A stretch of DNA of 37,291 nucleotides, taken from the sequence record SRR22947727_410; one strand, 5' to 3'. The first letter of the stretch is position 1; each line of letters starts with the position of its first letter. Position numbers and translations under genes: made by a program. The notes under the pieces were generated by a model. It worked only from the letters and a program-made list of their open reading frames with translations, was not told the DNA's origin and made no database searches. Positions 17,182 through 25,182 of the stretch are shown here, piece by piece.

Positions 17182-17590
17182 AATGTTATTGTTGGGGTTT
17201 TAGCAAAAGAAGTTTTTTTATTACAAAAAATGAACCTTAATGTCAAAATATATATTTATTATATATTTAGGTTGTATTTGTAGTTGTAAGGTGAATTATA
17301 TTAATTCTTCTATTATTCATAACTATTAACATTAATTAAAATTTGTATAAAATAATCCTTAGTCTAATAAAAATGAGTATAATTAAAACAAATCATCTAA
17401 ATTCAATAGTTTATACTTATTGAGAAAAATAACAAATTGTTAATAAAATTTAATAAAAAGATAAACACAACCTATTAGTTTTTTTATTTCCTTCTTAATT
17501 TTTTGTTAGTTAAAAAATATAACTTTTAACTTATTCATAAAAAAATTTAAAAATAATTAATTATGTTTATAACTATAGTTGTTATACACA
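17182..17590. other. oriC: Probable chromosomal replication origin (oriC)
   Basis: About 400-bp extremely AT-rich non-coding gap, the largest in the window. One perfect TTWTNCACA box (TTATACACA 17582-17590) and 1-mismatch boxes at 17313, 17342, 17374, 17421, 17438, 17531, 17564. Divergent gene blocks either side, parABS nearby, upstream of maf as in other alphaproteobacteria. Confidence 0.8.
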
Positions 17591-18180
17591 TGCTCTTACA
17601 CAAAAAATTTATCCTAGCTAGCAATAGCGCATCAAGAAAAACCCTTTTAAAAAATGCAGGTTTAAGTTTTTTGACCAAAAAACCTCTTTGTGATGAAGAT
17701 TATATAAAAGGTCAATTATTAAAAAAAAATATAAACAAAAAAAACCTTCCCAAGCTATTAGCAGAAGCGAAAGCATTAAGTGTTAGTAAAATGAATACAA
17801 AACACCTAGTAGTTGGATCAGACACCATAATTTTATTTAACAACAAATTAGTTAATAAAGCCAAAACAATAGAAGAGGCTAAAAAAAAATTACAAAGATT
17901 TTCAGGAAAAAAACATCAAATTATTTCTGGTGCTTCTATATGTTTCAATAATAAACAGATTTGGTCATATCAACAAACATCTACAATACACATGAACACA
18001 CTTAATCAAAAACAGATTAACACATATTTAAAAAAAACAGATAAAAGCATCTTATCTTCTGTTGGTTGTTATCAGGTAGAAAGATTAGGACCACAAATTA
18101 TTAAATCAATTAATGGCGACTTCTTTAACGTACTTGGCTTTCCTTTATTTCCATTTTTAACTTTTTTGTCTAAGAGATAA
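17590..18180 (+). CDS. maf: Maf family nucleoside triphosphate pyrophosphatase
   Basis: FILASNSASRKTLL, VVGSDT, SVGCYQVE, GDFFNVLGFPL; start placed at second ATG (17590). Confidence 0.93.
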   Translation: MLLHKKFILASNSASRKTLLKNAGLSFLTKKPLCDEDYIKGQLLKKNINKKNLPKLLAEAKALSVSKMNTKHLVVGSDTIILFNNKLVNKAKTIEEAKKKLQRFSGKKHQIISGASICFNNKQIWSYQQTSTIHMNTLNQKQINTYLKKTDKSILSSVGCYQVERLGPQIIKSINGDFFNVLGFPLFPFLTFLSKR

Positions 18181-18182
18181 AG

Positions 18183-18968
18183 GTGAAAAATTTTTTTGTT
18201 ATAGGTGACCAAACCTCAAAAAGCCTCTCGCCCTTAATTTTTAATCATTGGTTTAAAAAATATAATATACAGGCAAAATACTCTTTTTTAGAAGTTACAA
18301 AAAAAAAATTTAACATTGAAATAGTTAAAAAATTAAATGATAAAAACACCCAGGGGTTAAACGTTACAATCCCTTTTAAAAAAGATATAATAAAATATCT
18401 GGATAATAAAAATGTTCACGCTCAAAAGATTGGAGCAGTAAATTGTGTAACGGTTGGAAAAAAAATCAAAGGGACAAATACTGATTGGTTAGGTTACTTA
18501 AATTCAATTAAAAATAATAAAATTAACAAAAATAAAAATATATTAATTTTAGGTTTTGGTGGGGCCTCACAAGCAATCTATTATGGTTTTTTCTTTAAAG
18601 GCTATAAAAATGTAAGTGTTTTTAACCGGTCTAAAAAAGCGATTAACATAGGGGGGGTCAAAAAATATACCAAAGATTACTCACTTATTAACTCTTATCT
18701 AATTAAATCAGATTTAATAATAAACACAACACCAATAAACCCTCTCAACAAAAAACAAATCAATCTTATTAAAAAGAATACGATAATAAGTGATATTGTT
18801 TACCAACCAAAAGAAACACCTTTTCTAAAAGAGTTTAAATTTAATAAAAAAATTTATGGTATCTCAATGTTGGTTGAACAAGCCTTACCCTGCTTTAAAC
18901 TATGGTTCGGTTTTGTGCCAGTTGTTGATGGTCTTCTAATTAAAAAACTTTACAAAAAAATTAAATGA
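18183..18968 (+). CDS. aroE: Shikimate dehydrogenase
   Basis: SLSP, GLNVTIPFK, GAVNC, GTNTDWLG, GFGGAS, DIVYQP. Confidence 0.95.
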   Translation: MKNFFVIGDQTSKSLSPLIFNHWFKKYNIQAKYSFLEVTKKKFNIEIVKKLNDKNTQGLNVTIPFKKDIIKYLDNKNVHAQKIGAVNCVTVGKKIKGTNTDWLGYLNSIKNNKINKNKNILILGFGGASQAIYYGFFFKGYKNVSVFNRSKKAINIGGVKKYTKDYSLINSYLIKSDLIINTTPINPLNKKQINLIKKNTIISDIVYQPKETPFLKEFKFNKKIYGISMLVEQALPCFKLWFGFVPVVDGLLIKKLYKKIK

Positions 18969-19561
18969 CTAAAGTGGTGGGTATAACAGGGGGTATTGGT
19001 TCCGGTAAAACAACCTTCTCAAACCACGTAAAAAAACTAGGGTACTTAGTTCATGAGTCAGATGTGGTTGTTGCAGAAATTTATACTAAACCAAAAAAAC
19101 AATTTCTTAGTTTTATTAAAGAAAAAATTTCACTAGATGCAGTAAATCATAATAAAATAAATAAAACAAAAATAGCAAATATAATTTTTGAAAATAAAGC
19201 AATTAAAAAATTACTTGAAACACGTATTCACAAAGAGGTTCAAAGCTCTAGAGATGCTTTCATTAAAAAATACAAAAAAAATAAAAACAAATTAATTTTT
19301 GCAGACATACCACTTTTGTTTGAAAACAAGTTAGAGAAAGGCTTTGATGTGGTTGTTTGTGTTATTTCTTTAAAAAAAAACAGAATTAAAAGAGTTTTAG
19401 AAAATAAAAAATTTACAAAAGAAAATCTTAATAAAATTCTCAAAGCACAAACAACAGACAAAGAAAGAAAAAAGCGCTCACAAATTATAATTAATAATAA
19501 TAAAACAAAAAAAGACTTTATTTTTAGTATTGAAAAGGTTTTAACAAGGTTAAATAAATGA
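18965..19561 (+). CDS. coaE: Dephospho-CoA kinase
   Basis: GITGGIGSGKTT, DIPLLFE. Confidence 0.95.
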   Translation: MTKVVGITGGIGSGKTTFSNHVKKLGYLVHESDVVVAEIYTKPKKQFLSFIKEKISLDAVNHNKINKTKIANIIFENKAIKKLLETRIHKEVQSSRDAFIKKYKKNKNKLIFADIPLLFENKLEKGFDVVVCVISLKKNRIKRVLENKKFTKENLNKILKAQTTDKERKKRSQIIINNNKTKKDFIFSIEKVLTRLNK

Positions 19562-20238
19562 GAGAAATTGTAATCGATACCGAAACAACAGGTTTAAGCT
19601 ATAAGACCGGTGATCGAGTTATAGAAGTTGGTTGTGTTGAGCTAATTAATCATGTTGCAACAAACAAATCACTTCAATTTTATTGCAAAGTAGATAAAGA
19701 AATTTCAGAGGGCGCTCAAAGAATTACAGGTATTACAAATAAATTTTTGAGTGATAAAAAATATTTTAGTGATCATTGTGATGAGTTCCTAAAATTTATC
19801 AGTAACGACCCACTAATTATACATAATGCTGATTTTGATGTTGGTTTTATAAATAATGAGTTATCACATTTAGGAAGGTCTAAACTTTCAAATCCAATTG
19901 TTGATACAGTTTCTCTAGCAAGGAAGGTTTTAAATACACGAGTTGCCAATTTAGATTACTTATGTAGAAGATTTAAAATAGATCTGTCTGAGAGAGATTT
20001 ACACGGCGCGCTTCTAGACTCAAGATTGTTGGCAGAGGTGTATTTGGAACTAAAGGGCGGAAAACAGTTTTCTATGAACCTTGCAAAAAATAATCAAGAA
20101 ATCAACAAAACAAGCAATAACAAAACAAATAATCAAAAAAATATTAAAAAGTTTACACCCTTAAAAGAAGATGTTGAGCTTCATAGAATGATGGTTAGTG
20201 AAATAAAACAACCAGTTTGGAAGAAATATAACTATTAA
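19558..20238 (+). CDS. dnaQ: DNA polymerase III epsilon subunit
   Basis: IDTETTG, HNADFD, HGALLD exonuclease motifs. Confidence 0.97.
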   Translation: MREIVIDTETTGLSYKTGDRVIEVGCVELINHVATNKSLQFYCKVDKEISEGAQRITGITNKFLSDKKYFSDHCDEFLKFISNDPLIIHNADFDVGFINNELSHLGRSKLSNPIVDTVSLARKVLNTRVANLDYLCRRFKIDLSERDLHGALLDSRLLAEVYLELKGGKQFSMNLAKNNQEINKTSNNKTNNQKNIKKFTPLKEDVELHRMMVSEIKQPVWKKYNY

Positions 20239-20267
20239 AATACAAAAAAGTAATTATATGATAATTA

Positions 20268-20855
20268 ATGGTTTACGGAGATTTGCAATTTTTTGATATT
20301 ATTATTTTTGCTGCAATAGCTGTTTTTATAATTTATCGACTTAGGAGTGTGCTTGGAAAAAGAACGGGTTTTCAAAAAAAACAAGTCGACAAACAGTTTG
20401 TAAAAAAACAACCCACACAAGAAAAAGAAGAAATCAAAACACCTCAATTAAGAGAAAGTGAGCAGAAACTTGAAAATGTGTATAAAGCAATACCATCTTT
20501 TGAGCATAGGGCTTTCTTAGAAGGTGCGAAAAAAGCTTTTGAAATTATTATTACAGCTTTCAACAAAGGGGACAAGGCTACTTTAAAAAACCTGGTTTCA
20601 AAAGACGTATATAAAGCTTTCGAAGGCGCAATTAATGATGGCTCAAATAACCCCAATTCCCAATTTTATTCTTTAGTAATTGATGGCATCAATGATGCAA
20701 AAGTCGAAAATGGAAAAATAATTATAGGTGTAAATTTTATAAGTGAGCAAATTTTAAGCGATAATGAAGAAGATATAGTAAAAAATAAGGATACATGGGT
20801 CTTTGAAAAACCAGAAAATTCAAATGGACCAGCCTGGACTCTTGTTTCAACTTAA
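20268..20855 (+). CDS. Tim44/TimA family membrane-anchored protein
   Basis: DIIIFAAIAVFIIYRLRSVLGKRTG anchor, FLEGAKKAFEIIITAF, DTWVF...WTLVST. Confidence 0.9.
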   Translation: MVYGDLQFFDIIIFAAIAVFIIYRLRSVLGKRTGFQKKQVDKQFVKKQPTQEKEEIKTPQLRESEQKLENVYKAIPSFEHRAFLEGAKKAFEIIITAFNKGDKATLKNLVSKDVYKAFEGAINDGSNNPNSQFYSLVIDGINDAKVENGKIIIGVNFISEQILSDNEEDIVKNKDTWVFEKPENSNGPAWTLVST

Positions 20856-20860
20856 AAAAT

Positions 20861-21292
20861 TTGGAATTTTATAATTTAAAAAAAAGAATTAAATCAAACG
20901 AAGGTTTTTCTTCCAAACCCTATAAAGATCAGTTGGGATATTTAACAATTGGTTATGGTCATTTAATTTTATCAAATGAAAATATTTTATTAAAAAAAAA
21001 AATAAACAAAAAAGAACTTGAGGAAATATTTGAAAAAGATTTTAAGAAAGCACTGCATAACTTTAATAACAAATTAAAATTCCATACTTCAAATAAAAAA
21101 GAAGCCGAGCTCTTAATTGAAATGATTTTTCAACTTGGAATAAAAGGTTGCCTTAAATTTAACAATCTTTTAAAAAATCTGAGAAAAGGCAACACATACC
21201 TTGTTTGCTTTGAAATGATGGATAGTCTTTGGTATAAACAAACACCCGACAGGGTAAAAACTTTGATTAAAAATTTTTTAAACAATGAATAA
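20861..21292 (+). CDS. T4-lysozyme-like muramidase (GH24)
   Basis: [27 protein letters not shown] with E14-x8-D23-x5-T29; [20 protein letters not shown]; TTG start, no signal peptide. Confidence 0.88.
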   Translation: [143 protein letters not shown]

Positions 21293-21827
21293 CAGTGATG
21301 ATTTTTTTTTAAATAAAATGAAGGGTGTGAGCCCAATAAAAAAAAATAATAGAATAAAAAAAGAAGTTTCTAAAACAAACTATAAATCTTTAAAAAAAAA
21401 AATAGTAAAACATAAAAAGGTTATAAATCCAAATGTAAGTAAAGTAAAAAAAAACAGTGAGTTTCTTTTAGAAAAAATAGATTTAAAAAAAGGGATTAAA
21501 AAAGGTTCTTTTCATATAGATAAAAAAATAGACTTTCACGGTAAGTCACTCCTAGAGTCTGAAGAGCAGTTTAATAATACCATTCATGAGAGTTTTAGTA
21601 GCGGACAAAGGTGTTTATTATTTGTAACAGGAAAAGGCCTTTTTAAATCAAAAAATTATGATGAAAGTGACAAACCAAAACTATATCACGGTATAATTAG
21701 AACTGCTTTTGTTGAATGGGCAAGGTCAAAAAAATTTTCTAAATATATTCTTTCATTTGAACAAGCCTCGATAGAACACGGTGGAGCCGGGGCTTTTTAT
21801 ATTTACCTAAGAAAAAATAAAATCTAG
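21285..21827 (+). CDS. Stand-alone Smr domain protein
   Basis: IDFHG, FVTGKG, HGGAGAFYIYLRK; N-terminal FLNKMKGVSPIKK. Confidence 0.92.
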   Translation: MNNSDDFFLNKMKGVSPIKKNNRIKKEVSKTNYKSLKKKIVKHKKVINPNVSKVKKNSEFLLEKIDLKKGIKKGSFHIDKKIDFHGKSLLESEEQFNNTIHESFSSGQRCLLFVTGKGLFKSKNYDESDKPKLYHGIIRTAFVEWARSKKFSKYILSFEQASIEHGGAGAFYIYLRKNKI

Positions 21828-22495
21828 TTTTGTTCTAACTTAAAAACCCTTCCATCAAAGTGAATATTTATTTTTACTGGGAGCAAAACTCCATTTTTTT
21901 TTTCAAAACTGATTTGTTCAAACTTACTTTTTTTATGATCAGCCCACAGATTAGAGTAGTTAGAAATATTTATTACAGTTTTATTTTCTTTTTTATTAAA
22001 TTTCGCGTTCATGGTGTATGTTCTTCTCCCATCAATTACTAAAGAGTTATTTTCGCCCATTATAATTTCTAGAAAAGAACTAAGCGGATCTTTCGTTTGT
22101 TTGATATTGAATACATCTATCCTTAATTTTTCTTTTTCATAAGGTGTTTGATTTAACGATCTAAGCATATTGTTTTCAAAACTAAGCTTCATGTTCTTTT
22201 CAGTTTTATTTGTTTTCCAAACATGATTGTAGCTGTGTGGTTTTAGTTTGTTGTTTTCAACTATGCCTTTTGAAAAATAATCACCCTCAAACGTATAAAT
22301 TGCAGATAAGAGCCCTTTACTTTTTAACCTTATATCGTTCGAAAAATTATCCTTATCAATTTCTAGTTTCCAAACCAACTCACCTATTTTAAACCCAGAA
22401 ACTTTTATAGAAAATTTTTTGTAAAAACTCTCGGCATACACAGGGCTGCTTATAAAAAATAAAAGAATAAAAAAATTATTTAAAATAAATCTCAT
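21824..22495 (-). CDS. Exported protein, DUF3108-like
   Basis: Signal peptide ending VYA; GFKIG, DPLSSF, DGRRTY motifs. Confidence 0.6.
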   Translation of the reverse strand: MRFILNNFFILLFFISSPVYAESFYKKFSIKVSGFKIGELVWKLEIDKDNFSNDIRLKSKGLLSAIYTFEGDYFSKGIVENNKLKPHSYNHVWKTNKTEKNMKLSFENNMLRSLNQTPYEKEKLRIDVFNIKQTKDPLSSFLEIIMGENNSLVIDGRRTYTMNAKFNKKENKTVINISNYSNLWADHKKSKFEQISFEKKNGVLLPVKINIHFDGRVFKLEQN

Positions 22496-23858
22496 ATAAT
22501 TTTATAGGCTCAGAACTAAATGGAACATCAAACTCTTTTATTAATGTACTTTTTTTCTTATGCGATAAGTAAGAGATATTACTTATGTCGCCAATAAGAA
22601 AAAAATCATTTTTTCTATCAATGTTTAATGCTGAGCTCATTTGAAAATGATTTGTTATCGAAGCACCTGTTTCGTACGGCATTAAAATTGAATTTTCTTT
22701 GTTGCGAAATTGATATGCAATGTTTGAGAAAATAATACGATCAGAGACAACAATGTCTTGTTCTTTAACTATTTCAGAAAGGTTGTTAGAAAATTTCTCC
22801 ACACCTGTTATTCTGTCAAAAACTTTATTATCTGACGTATTTAAAATAGAAAAAAACAATAAAAACGCAATTAGATAATTAAAAATAAAATTTATTTTTA
22901 AAAGAGAGCTTTTGTTCACCAATCTAAATAAAAATATAAAAATAGAAATAAGCGCTGGAGCAGCCCAGTTAGCATTAGCTCTTACAAGAAAACTTTCTAC
23001 CAAGACAATTAAGATTATTGGTAAAGCAAATATTAATAGAAACTTATTTTCATAATCTAAGCGAAAACTTTTGAGAAAAAAAATAAAAAAAATAAATAAT
23101 AAAGGTCCTACCATTAATATCTGTGACCCTAAAAATTTTGCTGGCTCATAAAGGTTTAGGTTTAAATTTTGTAAATTTGCATTATCTGATGTGTGAGAAA
23201 AGGTTATCCACCCATTATTAAAGTTCCATAAAATATTAGGCAACAAAACCACAATAAAAGACAATAAAAAAACTAAAACACCAAAAGGGTTGTTTTTAAA
23301 ACTTTTCAAGCTTGTTTTGTCTAAAAACAATAATAGTAAAAGGCTTAATAAAAAATAAATAGCAGCATATTTTGCCAGAAATCCTAGGCCCAAAACTAAA
23401 CCTAATAAAAAAAAATTTATGGTAAGGTTGGTTTTTATTACTTTTAAAAGCAGATTCATTGATATTGCCCAAAATAATAAAAGCAATAAATCTGTTGATA
23501 TTAAAAAAGAAGACAGACTAGCCGCAGGAATAATTAAAAAACTTAAAGCACATACCTTTGCTTTTTTCTTATCAAACGATAAATTTAAGCAAAGCTTATA
23601 AATCGCATATGAAATAAAAAAATAAATAACAATAGGGAATGTTTTTAAGGAAACAAAAGAATCACCAAATAAAATAGAATAACCATTTAAAAACCAAGCA
23701 AGTAAAGGGGGTTTGGAATAATATCCTAAGTCAAGAGTTTGTGACCACAACCAGTATTGAGCTTCATCACCATAAAGACTAAATTCTGTTAAATAAATAG
23801 CTGTAATTTTAAAAACTATAAGAAAAAAGATTGCTAAACCTAACATTTTATTTGTCAT
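22476..23858 (-). CDS. ArnT/PMT (GT-C fold) membrane glycosyltransferase
   Basis: DEAQYWLWS, GYYSKPPLLAW, STD, LAKY, PNILWN, NWAAP; many TM helices; start uncertain. Confidence 0.88.
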   Translation of the reverse strand: MTNKMLGLAIFFLIVFKITAIYLTEFSLYGDEAQYWLWSQTLDLGYYSKPPLLAWFLNGYSILFGDSFVSLKTFPIVIYFFISYAIYKLCLNLSFDKKKAKVCALSFLIIPAASLSSFLISTDLLLLLFWAISMNLLLKVIKTNLTINFFLLGLVLGLGFLAKYAAIYFLLSLLLLLFLDKTSLKSFKNNPFGVLVFLLSFIVVLLPNILWNFNNGWITFSHTSDNANLQNLNLNLYEPAKFLGSQILMVGPLLFIFFIFFLKSFRLDYENKFLLIFALPIILIVLVESFLVRANANWAAPALISIFIFLFRLVNKSSLLKINFIFNYLIAFLLFFSILNTSDNKVFDRITGVEKFSNNLSEIVKEQDIVVSDRIIFSNIAYQFRNKENSILMPYETGASITNHFQMSSALNIDRKNDFFLIGDISNISYLSHKKKSTLIKEFDVPFSSEPIKLYEIYFK

Positions 23859-25182
23859 AAAATTTTTTATATAAAACAAAAGACACTAAGATTGTAGCAG
23901 TTACTATTATTTGAGAAAAAATTATATCGCTAAAAAAATGTCCCCCTGCAGCAATTCTTATAAAACCTAATAACGAACCTAAAATTAACCCCAGATAAAG
24001 ATATGCATTTTTATTTGTTATAAAATAAAAGACAATTAGTAAGAATCCTACAGAAGAATCACCAGACACAAACGAGCAATTTGAGGAACATGCATCACTA
24101 ATTTTATACCATGGTGTAAAATCTTGTAAACCATTAAAATATGAAACATCATTAGGTCTTGCTCTGCCCCACATGTTTTTTAGCACAACATTCACAACTA
24201 ACAACATTGTAACTGTTCCAGAAACCCAAACATAAACAATCTCTGATAGTGAAAACTTATAACCAAAATAAATTTTTTGTAATGGCAAAAAGCGTAAAAA
24301 CAAAGGAAGAACAAAAATATATATTAATAGAGACGGAAGTAGAATTTTTCTAAAAAGAATTGAAACAGGATAATAGTTTTGAATCAAGAATTGTTTATCT
24401 CCATAGTAAAAAAGACTACTTATATAAAGATCTATTGAGGGACCAGTTGTTACAAATGCGGCTAATATAAAAAAAATAATTAACACACTTGTTTCCATTG
24501 GGATTTTTGAAATCTTTAAATTTCCCCAGTAGATGTTTGGATAATTAATCTTAATAAAATAATCAAACATTTTATAAGCACTAATTGCAATTATCACACC
24601 CCCAATAACATCAGTTAAAAAATGTGCCCCAACAACAACCCTGCTTAAAGCTATTAAAAAACCAAAAAAATAAAAAAAATATCTTAAGTTTGGAATAGAC
24701 AATGCCATAATTATGGCAATTGCTATAATTGTTGAGGAATGACCTGATGGAAAAGAGTGGAAAGATGATTCAGTAGAAAAAAAATTAAACTCAAAACTAC
24801 CATCTAATTGAGCATGGTTTGGTCTTGGTCTTCCTACTAGGTGCTTAATTATTTGGGTAATTAGACCAACAAGAAGTAAATATGAAAAACTAAAAACACT
24901 AAATTTTTTTAAATAAAGATACTTTTCTTTACCTATTTTATTTAACTTTTTTAATAAATAAGAAGAAAAGAAAAGAAGAGTAAAAAATAAAAAATACCAC
25001 AATGAGTCACCTAAATCAGTTATTCTAATAAAAAAATCTTTTAGATATACTGAACCAATTCCATAATTAAATTTTGTGAAAAGGCTGTTAACCCAAAGAT
25101 CAAAATTGTTAGTAAATAAAATAGATGTTAGTAAAAGAATAAATAAACTAAACTCAATGTGTATTTTTTTAATCACAAACAA
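23848..25182 (-). CDS. Tandem two-domain PAP2 family membrane phosphatase (lipid A / lipid-phosphate phosphatase-like)
   Basis: Domain 1 KHLVGRPRP / FPSGH / SRVVVGAHFLTD; domain 2 KNMWGRARP / FVSGD / IRIAAGGHFFSD. Confidence 0.85.
   Translation of the reverse strand: MFVIKKIHIEFSLFILLLTSILFTNNFDLWVNSLFTKFNYGIGSVYLKDFFIRITDLGDSLWYFLFFTLLFFSSYLLKKLNKIGKEKYLYLKKFSVFSFSYLLLVGLITQIIKHLVGRPRPNHAQLDGSFEFNFFSTESSFHSFPSGHSSTIIAIAIIMALSIPNLRYFFYFFGFLIALSRVVVGAHFLTDVIGGVIIAISAYKMFDYFIKINYPNIYWGNLKISKIPMETSVLIIFFILAAFVTTGPSIDLYISSLFYYGDKQFLIQNYYPVSILFRKILLPSLLIYIFVLPLFLRFLPLQKIYFGYKFSLSEIVYVWVSGTVTMLLVVNVVLKNMWGRARPNDVSYFNGLQDFTPWYKISDACSSNCSFVSGDSSVGFLLIVFYFITNKNAYLYLGLILGSLLGFIRIAAGGHFFSDIIFSQIIVTATILVSFVLYKKFYDK

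Follow-up and report, generated by a model that had tools for sequence, protein, structure and literature searches.

A probable domesticated T4-type phage lysozyme in the tim44–smr operon of a marine alphaproteobacterial family, with a possible role in peptidoglycan recycling

How did a phage-type lysozyme come to lie between tim44 and smr in a bacterial housekeeping operon, and what might it do there? The question is raised by the window, a stretch of 37,291 nucleotides from the chromosome of an alphaproteobacterium with AT-rich DNA, with the gene order parAB, gidAB, mnmE, rho, maf-aroE-coaE-dnaQ-tim44-lysozyme-smr, DUF3108, PMT_2, PAP2, hslUV and his genes. Co-option of a phage lysin for housekeeping is rarely documented according to the available text of the work on SpmX (10.1101/418723), and no description of the present gene was found in the open-licence literature. 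The features on which the analysis rests are the following.

17182..17562, no strand: AT-rich rho-maf intergenic stretch, candidate oriC
17563..20238, + strand: maf-aroE-coaE-dnaQ, in the same order in loci of the family and of its sister family
20268..20855, + strand: tim44, TimA-family membrane adaptor (PF04280 and NF033779 above cut-off)
20861..21292, + strand: T4-type (GH24) lysozyme, single domain, 143 aa (Pfam, PDB match, predicted fold, no export signal)
20861..20863, + strand: TTG start codon of the lysozyme, 5 bases past the tim44 stop, conserved family-wide
20900..20947, + strand: codons of the catalytic triad E14 (20900-20902), D23 (20927-20929) and T29 (20945-20947), read from the sequence and invariant in 45/45 loci
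21285..21827, + strand: smr-domain protein (PF01713; NF033154 below cut-off)

The lysozyme gene and its neighbourhood

By sequence and predicted fold the product of 20861-21292 is a T4-like GH24 lysozyme. The ORF matches the Pfam family Phage_lysozyme (PF00959) with 56 bits and an E value of 6.6e-15 at a curated cut-off of 22.3, its sequence matches in the PDB are T4 lysozyme entries (E about 1e-15), and its AlphaFold model (pLDDT 92) was aligned by Foldseek to T4 lysozyme with a TM(query) of 0.85. The Glu-x8-Asp-x5-Thr triad and the GH hairpin of T4-lysozyme-like GH24 enzymes are present, and in the alignment the spacing of E14/D23/T29 (9+6) is that of E11/D20/T26 in T4 lysozyme; the enzyme is presumably active. 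With the profile of the Bartonella GTA endolysin BgtA (NF058676) the ORF reached 47 bits, below the cut-off of 315. The gene starts 5 bp past the tim44 stop (20855) and overlaps smr (from 21285) by 8 bp, and its GC content of 24% (GC3 22%) is within the range of the neighbouring genes. A first-pass annotation of this DNA, made from the letters alone, had claimed the T4 landmarks, the T4-like triad spacing, these coordinates with the 143-aa length, the gap and the overlap, and a host-like composition, and it was right in each of these points.

No phage structural, integrase or holin family was found among the window ORFs (30 searched with Pfam, 17 with PHROGs and 16 with NCBIfam), as the same annotation had proposed for the surroundings of the gene, and the adjoining holin or phage genes of a holin-endolysin lysis cassette are missing. 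The genes maf-aroE-coaE-dnaQ are likely the upstream part of the lysozyme's operon. Assembled contigs from four RNA runs (three studies) include the gene and span the tim44-lysozyme junction; as strand and level are unreadable from such contigs, they were given no weight. The tim44 product shows one N-terminal hydrophobic helix in the hydropathy profile, followed by basic residues, so that its TimA domain is predicted to be likely cytoplasmic. A remark that the locus lies near oriC stands as plausible by the alphaproteobacterial gene order, which we take to place oriC at the rho-maf gap, but no consensus DnaA box was found inside that gap (17182-17562).

Two smaller differences in gene content were seen around tim44. 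In several Alphaproteobacteria outside the order (L153, L161) tim44 is flanked by secB and fxsA; in both families of the order the stretch from dnaQ to tim44 (window 20238-20268) contains neither gene. The two family members that branch deepest have an additional ORF of about 200 aa that separates coaE from dnaQ (L036:3190-3870, L037:6530-7250).

Distribution, selection and phage origin

The order to which the window belongs comprises 187 genomes in two families, the G001 family with 116 genomes (here called the family) and a sister family with 71. The family genomes are mostly incomplete, at 0.7-1.6 Mb, and genome-wide statements rest on relatives of the window's own genome. No named marker identifies the order; we infer it to be the AEGEAN-169 clade, which the available text of PMC10308909 describes as marine, streamlined and consisting of two families; the words 'lysozyme' and 'peptidoglycan' are missing from the main text of that paper.

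A protein search returned 1486 relatives among 1556 candidates, and the best 120 of the 1486 are all 83-90% identical to the query; three loci from genomes of uncultured Alphaproteobacteria have the gene order of the window. Within the family a lysozyme match is present in 89/116 genomes, in one copy each and free of internal stops. A tim44 match was obtained in 88/116, and comparison of the coordinate tables placed the lysozyme directly downstream of it in 88/88. In the 89th genome, G045, the copy is of phage type and its contig carries portal and capsid genes; this contig (L038, G045:C11) also encodes a GroES-like protein, phrog_2524 and a lysozyme with an ATG start, and it is possibly a phage of the lineage or a contaminant. 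Synteny of the locus is kept down to 41% tim44 identity, and among the best 80 metagenome loci 44 show the host context, the phage partner gene adjoins the lysozyme in 29, and 7 could be assigned to neither.

The gene is under purifying selection. The median dN/dS is 0.10 for the lysozyme, compared with 0.05 for dnaQ, 0.06 for tim44 and 0.15 for smr, calculated from those 65 pairs, out of 990, for which dS was usable in each of the four genes; the pairs are not independent of each other. The residues E14, D23, T29, Q91, W124, Q127, T128 and R131 are invariant in 45/45 loci, and D23 and T29 also in 42/42 host-context metagenome loci. The first-pass annotation had allowed for a gene confined to a single strain or in decay; the former is refuted by the synteny in all 88 tim44-positive family genomes and the latter is not borne out by the low dN/dS and the intact triad. 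A prophage remnant, a single-strain accident or a chimeric assembly would explain the homology to phage proteins and nothing more, and with 88/88 syntenic genomes, a dN/dS of 0.10 and host context in 44 of the best 80 metagenome loci the genome survey refutes this reading. Vertical inheritance, purifying selection and a place outside any prophage mark the lysozyme, on the evidence of its sequence and distribution, as very probably a domesticated phage lysin that became a single-copy core gene throughout the family.

The annotated-phage matches are Pelagibacter phage lysozymes in 8/8 cases (31-42% identical), and relatives in IMG/VR reach 46% identity. The lysozymes of Pelagibacter phages (EXVC032P Baldr, HTVC119P, HTVC111P) and T4 gpe share with the host protein its length, fold, triad, C-terminal WxxQTPxR motif and N-terminal register at 31-46% identity. 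A quick tree of 130 rows was rooted at its midpoint, with the viral rows thinned from 84 loci and with 73/150 representatives used. It unites all 29 family rows and 10 unlabelled representatives on a single branch (SH-aLRT 95), which contains 0/28 viral rows. The comparison with marine phage endolysins that had been proposed for this gene therefore gave Pelagibacter phage lysozymes as the nearest named kin and a separate branch for the family. The simplest reading is a likely single capture from a Pelagibacter-type phage; we infer the direction from phage to host from the distribution, not from a rooted test.

Host and viral copies also differ in their settings, the viral lysozymes having an ATG start, a net acidic charge and usually phrog_2524 as neighbour, whereas the host copy has a TTG start, is basic and resides in a housekeeping operon. 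The net charge is +12 per 100 residues compared with -3.5 in the viral relatives. As the basic shift is common to maf, aroE, coaE and smr and inseparable from A+T drift, its interpretation as an adaptation of the lysozyme was rejected.

The slot of mltA

In a class-wide sample of 251 genomes tim44 was matched in 243 and MltA in 189 (tallies that include the unpublished genomes G226 and G425), and mltA directly follows tim44 in 120/127 genomes with both genes placed (G226 and G425 left out). The view that tim44-mltA is the usual alphaproteobacterial order is thereby supported. In the lysozyme-bearing family MltA was found in 0/116 genomes with positive controls, and the lysozyme occupies its chromosomal place. 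Both enzymes cut the MurNAc-GlcNAc bond, but MltA has an unrelated fold and is exported, and the lysozyme ORF has neither the PF03562 and 3D domains nor the export signal that define MltA. MltA leaves anhydro ends.

In the sister family both MltA and the lysozyme were found in 0/71 genomes, and tim44 abuts smr in 14/15 fetched loci, the 15th ending at a contig edge. Among 30 other small alphaproteobacterial genomes the slot is empty in 6 and contains a lysozyme in none, so MltA is plainly dispensable. Enzymes of the SLT family are present in 178/187 genomes of the order and MltG in 3/4 family genomes, and three PBPs were found in 5/5 genomes checked. Since SLT, MltG and PBPs are kept, the cells possess a wall and native glycan cutters, and the replacement of mltA by the lysozyme is positional. 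The AmiC family was found in 0/5 genomes, which has no bearing on the question. Compared with G068, G113 and G080, the sister genome G117, which is a single contig, gave no MltG match.

The first-pass annotation had proposed an in-situ replacement of mltA, implying a functional link between TimA and glycan cleavage. The positional part holds, with the same slot and mltA in 0/116 genomes; the functional swap is not supported, as the sister family has neither enzyme and its tim44 and smr abut, and neither is the implied TimA-glycan link, given the slots that are empty there and in 6/30 small genomes. Loss of mltA followed by later insertion of the lysozyme is as parsimonious as a swap, and the loss may predate the capture. 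The tim44-smr slot would then be a vacant site of coupled expression left behind by mltA, with no sign of shared function.

One could still imagine the lysozyme as a stand-in for MltA which is exported piggy-back or by a non-classical route, is maybe handled by TimA and cuts periplasmic glycans. It sits in what is mltA's slot in 120/127 genomes, mltA was not found in 116 family genomes, the gene is always coupled to tim44 at a distance of 1-6 bases, and the bond class is the same. We consider this improbable, because the slot is empty and both genes are missing in the sister family, 6/30 small genomes also have it empty, native lytic transglycosylases remain (SLT 178/187, MltG 3/4), and the lysozyme has no export signal and no conserved fusion to tim44. 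Moreover, an inverting hydrolase would not yield the anhydro ends made by MltA.

Start codon, location and possible function

The lysozyme starts with TTG in 44/45 genome loci, 1-6 bases past the tim44 stop, with the spacer and the next codons free to vary, and in 40/42 scoreable host-context metagenome loci. The viral relatives use the same start register with ATG in 83/84, and ATG also starts tim44 (41/45), dnaQ (41/45) and smr (43/45). The gene stands out in a comparison of 13 genes as the lone one of its kind, with an in-frame ATG near the start in 1/18 long loci; PAP2 was mixed. Since TTG accounts for only 11% of the Leu codons here, TTG at this position is a start that has been kept. UUG initiates translation more weakly than AUG in model bacteria, and the kept TTG likely limits the dose, so that expression of the lysozyme would be low. 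Absence of a ribosome-binding site was rejected as a further sign of low dose, because the neighbours are without one too (0, 8, 1 and 1 of 45). A read-through fusion of tim44 and lysozyme was rejected as well: with a spacing of 1-6 bases the genes lie in different frames, which leaves no conserved fusion. Two related loci (L022:1490-1510, L234:1490-1510) have no in-frame TTG; their in-frame ATA, which overlaps the TAA stop of tim44, is possibly a non-canonical coupled start.

Neither a hydrophobic N-terminus nor a twin-arginine motif was found in 45/45 family copies. The N-terminal hydropathy maximum is 1.18, compared with 2.9-3.3 for the signal-bearing YejA, and no segment qualifies as a SAR anchor, so the earlier statement that the protein has neither signal peptide nor SAR anchor extends to the whole set of 45. 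In phages the route through the membrane would be provided by a partner, for which phrog_2524, a small membrane protein annotated as unknown, is by its anatomy a candidate holin family of Pelagibacter-type phages. It lies within the locus of 63/84 viral lysozymes and in 1/187 genomes of the order, namely on the phage contig of G045; copies are at L038:5622-6011, L144:1972-2361 and L145:2929-3282. With the holin profile PF11351, applied to five genomes, the control was silent. As the enzyme has no signal, SAR or Tat motif and no phage partner, it likely stays in the cytoplasm, as predicted from these sequences.

A cytoplasmic lysozyme might be a stored autolysin that reaches the wall when the inner membrane is breached by phage entry or stress, leading to early lysis, vesicle release or wall clearance. 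A full triad combined with the lack of an export signal is indeed the anatomy of a holin-dependent endolysin, a weak start suits a toxic product and the closest kin are lysins of marine phages. Yet the phage partner phrog_2524 occurs only on a phage contig (1/187), and the gene is fixed, single-copy and part of a housekeeping operon with a housekeeping-like dN/dS, unlike patchy defence genes, which makes this role unlikely, though less so than a stand-in for MltA. Of the three routes to a substrate that had been suggested, piggy-back export and release on damage gained no support, while cytoplasmic recycling of imported fragments did.

This support comes from the transporter genes. AmpG was found in 0/116 family genomes compared with 59/71 in the sister family. 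For YejB, GH20 and NagZ the check covered five genomes (four of the family and G117): YejB scores above cut-off in 4/4 family genomes and not in G117, and a GH20 enzyme without signal is present in 4/4 and NagZ in 0/4 family genomes, a situation reversed in G117. The AmpD-type amidase was found in 5/5 genomes and AnmK in 2/4 family genomes. The family thus combines YejB and YejE above cut-off with the absence of AmpG, as does the YejBEF-YepA system. The slot next to cycM holds cycM-hisN-yejABEF in 3/3 family loci (L189-L191) and cycM-ampG in 9/9 sister loci (L196, L295-L302); use of one slot suggests that the two transporters do the same job. As YejABEF is present and AmpG absent, a cytoplasmic substrate would be available in the very family that encodes the lysozyme.

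Linear muropeptide dimers hold an inner MurNAc-GlcNAc bond, which is the bond cut by a muramidase. In Agrobacterium YejBEF-YepA brings such dimers into the cytoplasm, and none enter with AmpG substituted; the available text names no cytoplasmic muramidase for them (PMC9790009). As far as the same text describes that system, the family resembles it in being alphaproteobacterial and without AmpG, in having yejABEF together with another binding protein encoded on its own, and in its AmpD-type amidase; it differs in that here NagZ was not found and GH20 is present. The second, stand-alone YejA paralogue occurs in 4/4 family genomes; it adjoins msrPQ and not the DsbA-like/RgsG genes that form the context of yepA in Agrobacterium (PMC9790009, available text). 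Neither of the two binding proteins could be matched to YepA, as their PDB scores do not discriminate between them. This paralogue (L205-L207, 45-47% identical) is divergent from msrPQ-like genes and precedes a DMT transporter and a PfkB-like kinase.

Our best reading, to which we give a probability of roughly 40%, is that the domesticated phage lysin works in the cytoplasm on wall fragments imported by YejABEF. Slt and MltG would free such fragments in the periplasm, YejABEF would import monomers and linear dimers, and the lysozyme, made at low dose from its weak TTG, would cut the inner MurNAc-beta-1,4-GlcNAc bond, with the GH20 hexosaminidase, the AmpD-type amidase and AnmK finishing the breakdown. 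The substrate is thus deduced from gene content. Several points speak against it: the lysozyme gene is unlinked to the recycling genes, AnmK was found in just 2/4 family genomes, the surroundings of the GH20 gene are those of amino-sugar catabolism in general, Agrobacterium imports linear dimers with no named cytoplasmic muramidase, a substrate of four sugars may be a poor one for T4-type lysozymes, which prefer longer glycans, and lysozyme/YejABEF/GH20 against AmpG/NagZ is one evolutionary contrast of two families that may be a coincidence. Slightly more tentative still is the wider proposal of an undescribed recycling branch in a widespread ocean lineage, in which a phage endolysin, tamed by UUG and loss of its holin and not by damage to its active site, serves as the cytoplasmic muramidase on YejABEF imports and GH20 replaces NagZ. 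If the recycling role is true, it would name the cutter of YejBEF-imported linear dimers, a gap in AmpG-less recycling, and the enzyme, being small and soluble, could be assayed directly.

The cluster around the GH20 gene, which serves amino-sugar catabolism in general, also encodes a sugar ABC transporter, kinases and an amidohydrolase of the deacetylase type. The lysozyme might be a nutrient enzyme acting on oligomers of wall material and amino sugars from other cells, whether imported or scavenged, and feeding this cluster instead of the cell's own recycling, which would fit a clade that uses more sugars than SAR11 (PMC10308909, available text), if our lineage assignment is right. We regard this as a rather remote prospect, as the lysozyme gene is located outside the cluster and its product has no export signal. 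T4-type enzymes also need a stem peptide.

A phage lysin turned core gene is a kind already known from SpmX of the Caulobacterales, a GH24 muramidase of phage descent that an alphaproteobacterial clade inherits vertically as a core gene. SpmX belongs to the P22/autolysin class; it is joined to an intermediate domain and to membrane segments, and a D20 substitution has attenuated it (10.1101/418723, for both statements in its available text). The lysozyme described here is T4-like, stand-alone and intact in its triad, with neither a substitution at the D20 position nor a relaxed T26, and with no intermediate domain or C-terminal membrane segments; its taming was apparently by a weak start, a lost phage partner and no export. 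New are therefore the class, the architecture and the apparent route of taming, as well as TTG in 44/45 host loci compared with ATG in 83/84 viral relatives, and the gene represents an independent case of domestication in another lysozyme class, apparently tamed by dose and compartment. By analogy with SpmX (10.1101/418723, available text) the protein could be a binding or scaffold module, for instance at the cytoplasmic face with TimA, whose domain is likely in the same compartment, catalysis being secondary. This is hardly probable either, since the constraint on D20 and T26 was lost in SpmX and the corresponding D23 and T29 are invariant here (45/45 and 42/42), and the lysozyme carries no added domains or membrane anchor. 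Our preferred reading remains the recycling enzyme.

Two further observations concern other genes of these families. At the cycM slot peptidoglycan-recycling transporters were swapped in place between the sister families, paired with GH20 on one side and NagZ on the other. Between smr and hslU the window (21824-25182) encodes DUF3108, an ArnT-like glycosyltransferase of the PMT_2 family and a double-PAP2 protein with an LpxF-like second half, a group that is likely a lipid A modification cassette, as suggested by these similarities. The set occupies this position family-wide but not in the loci of the sister family; for L036 and L037 PAP2 matched as one short unit only.
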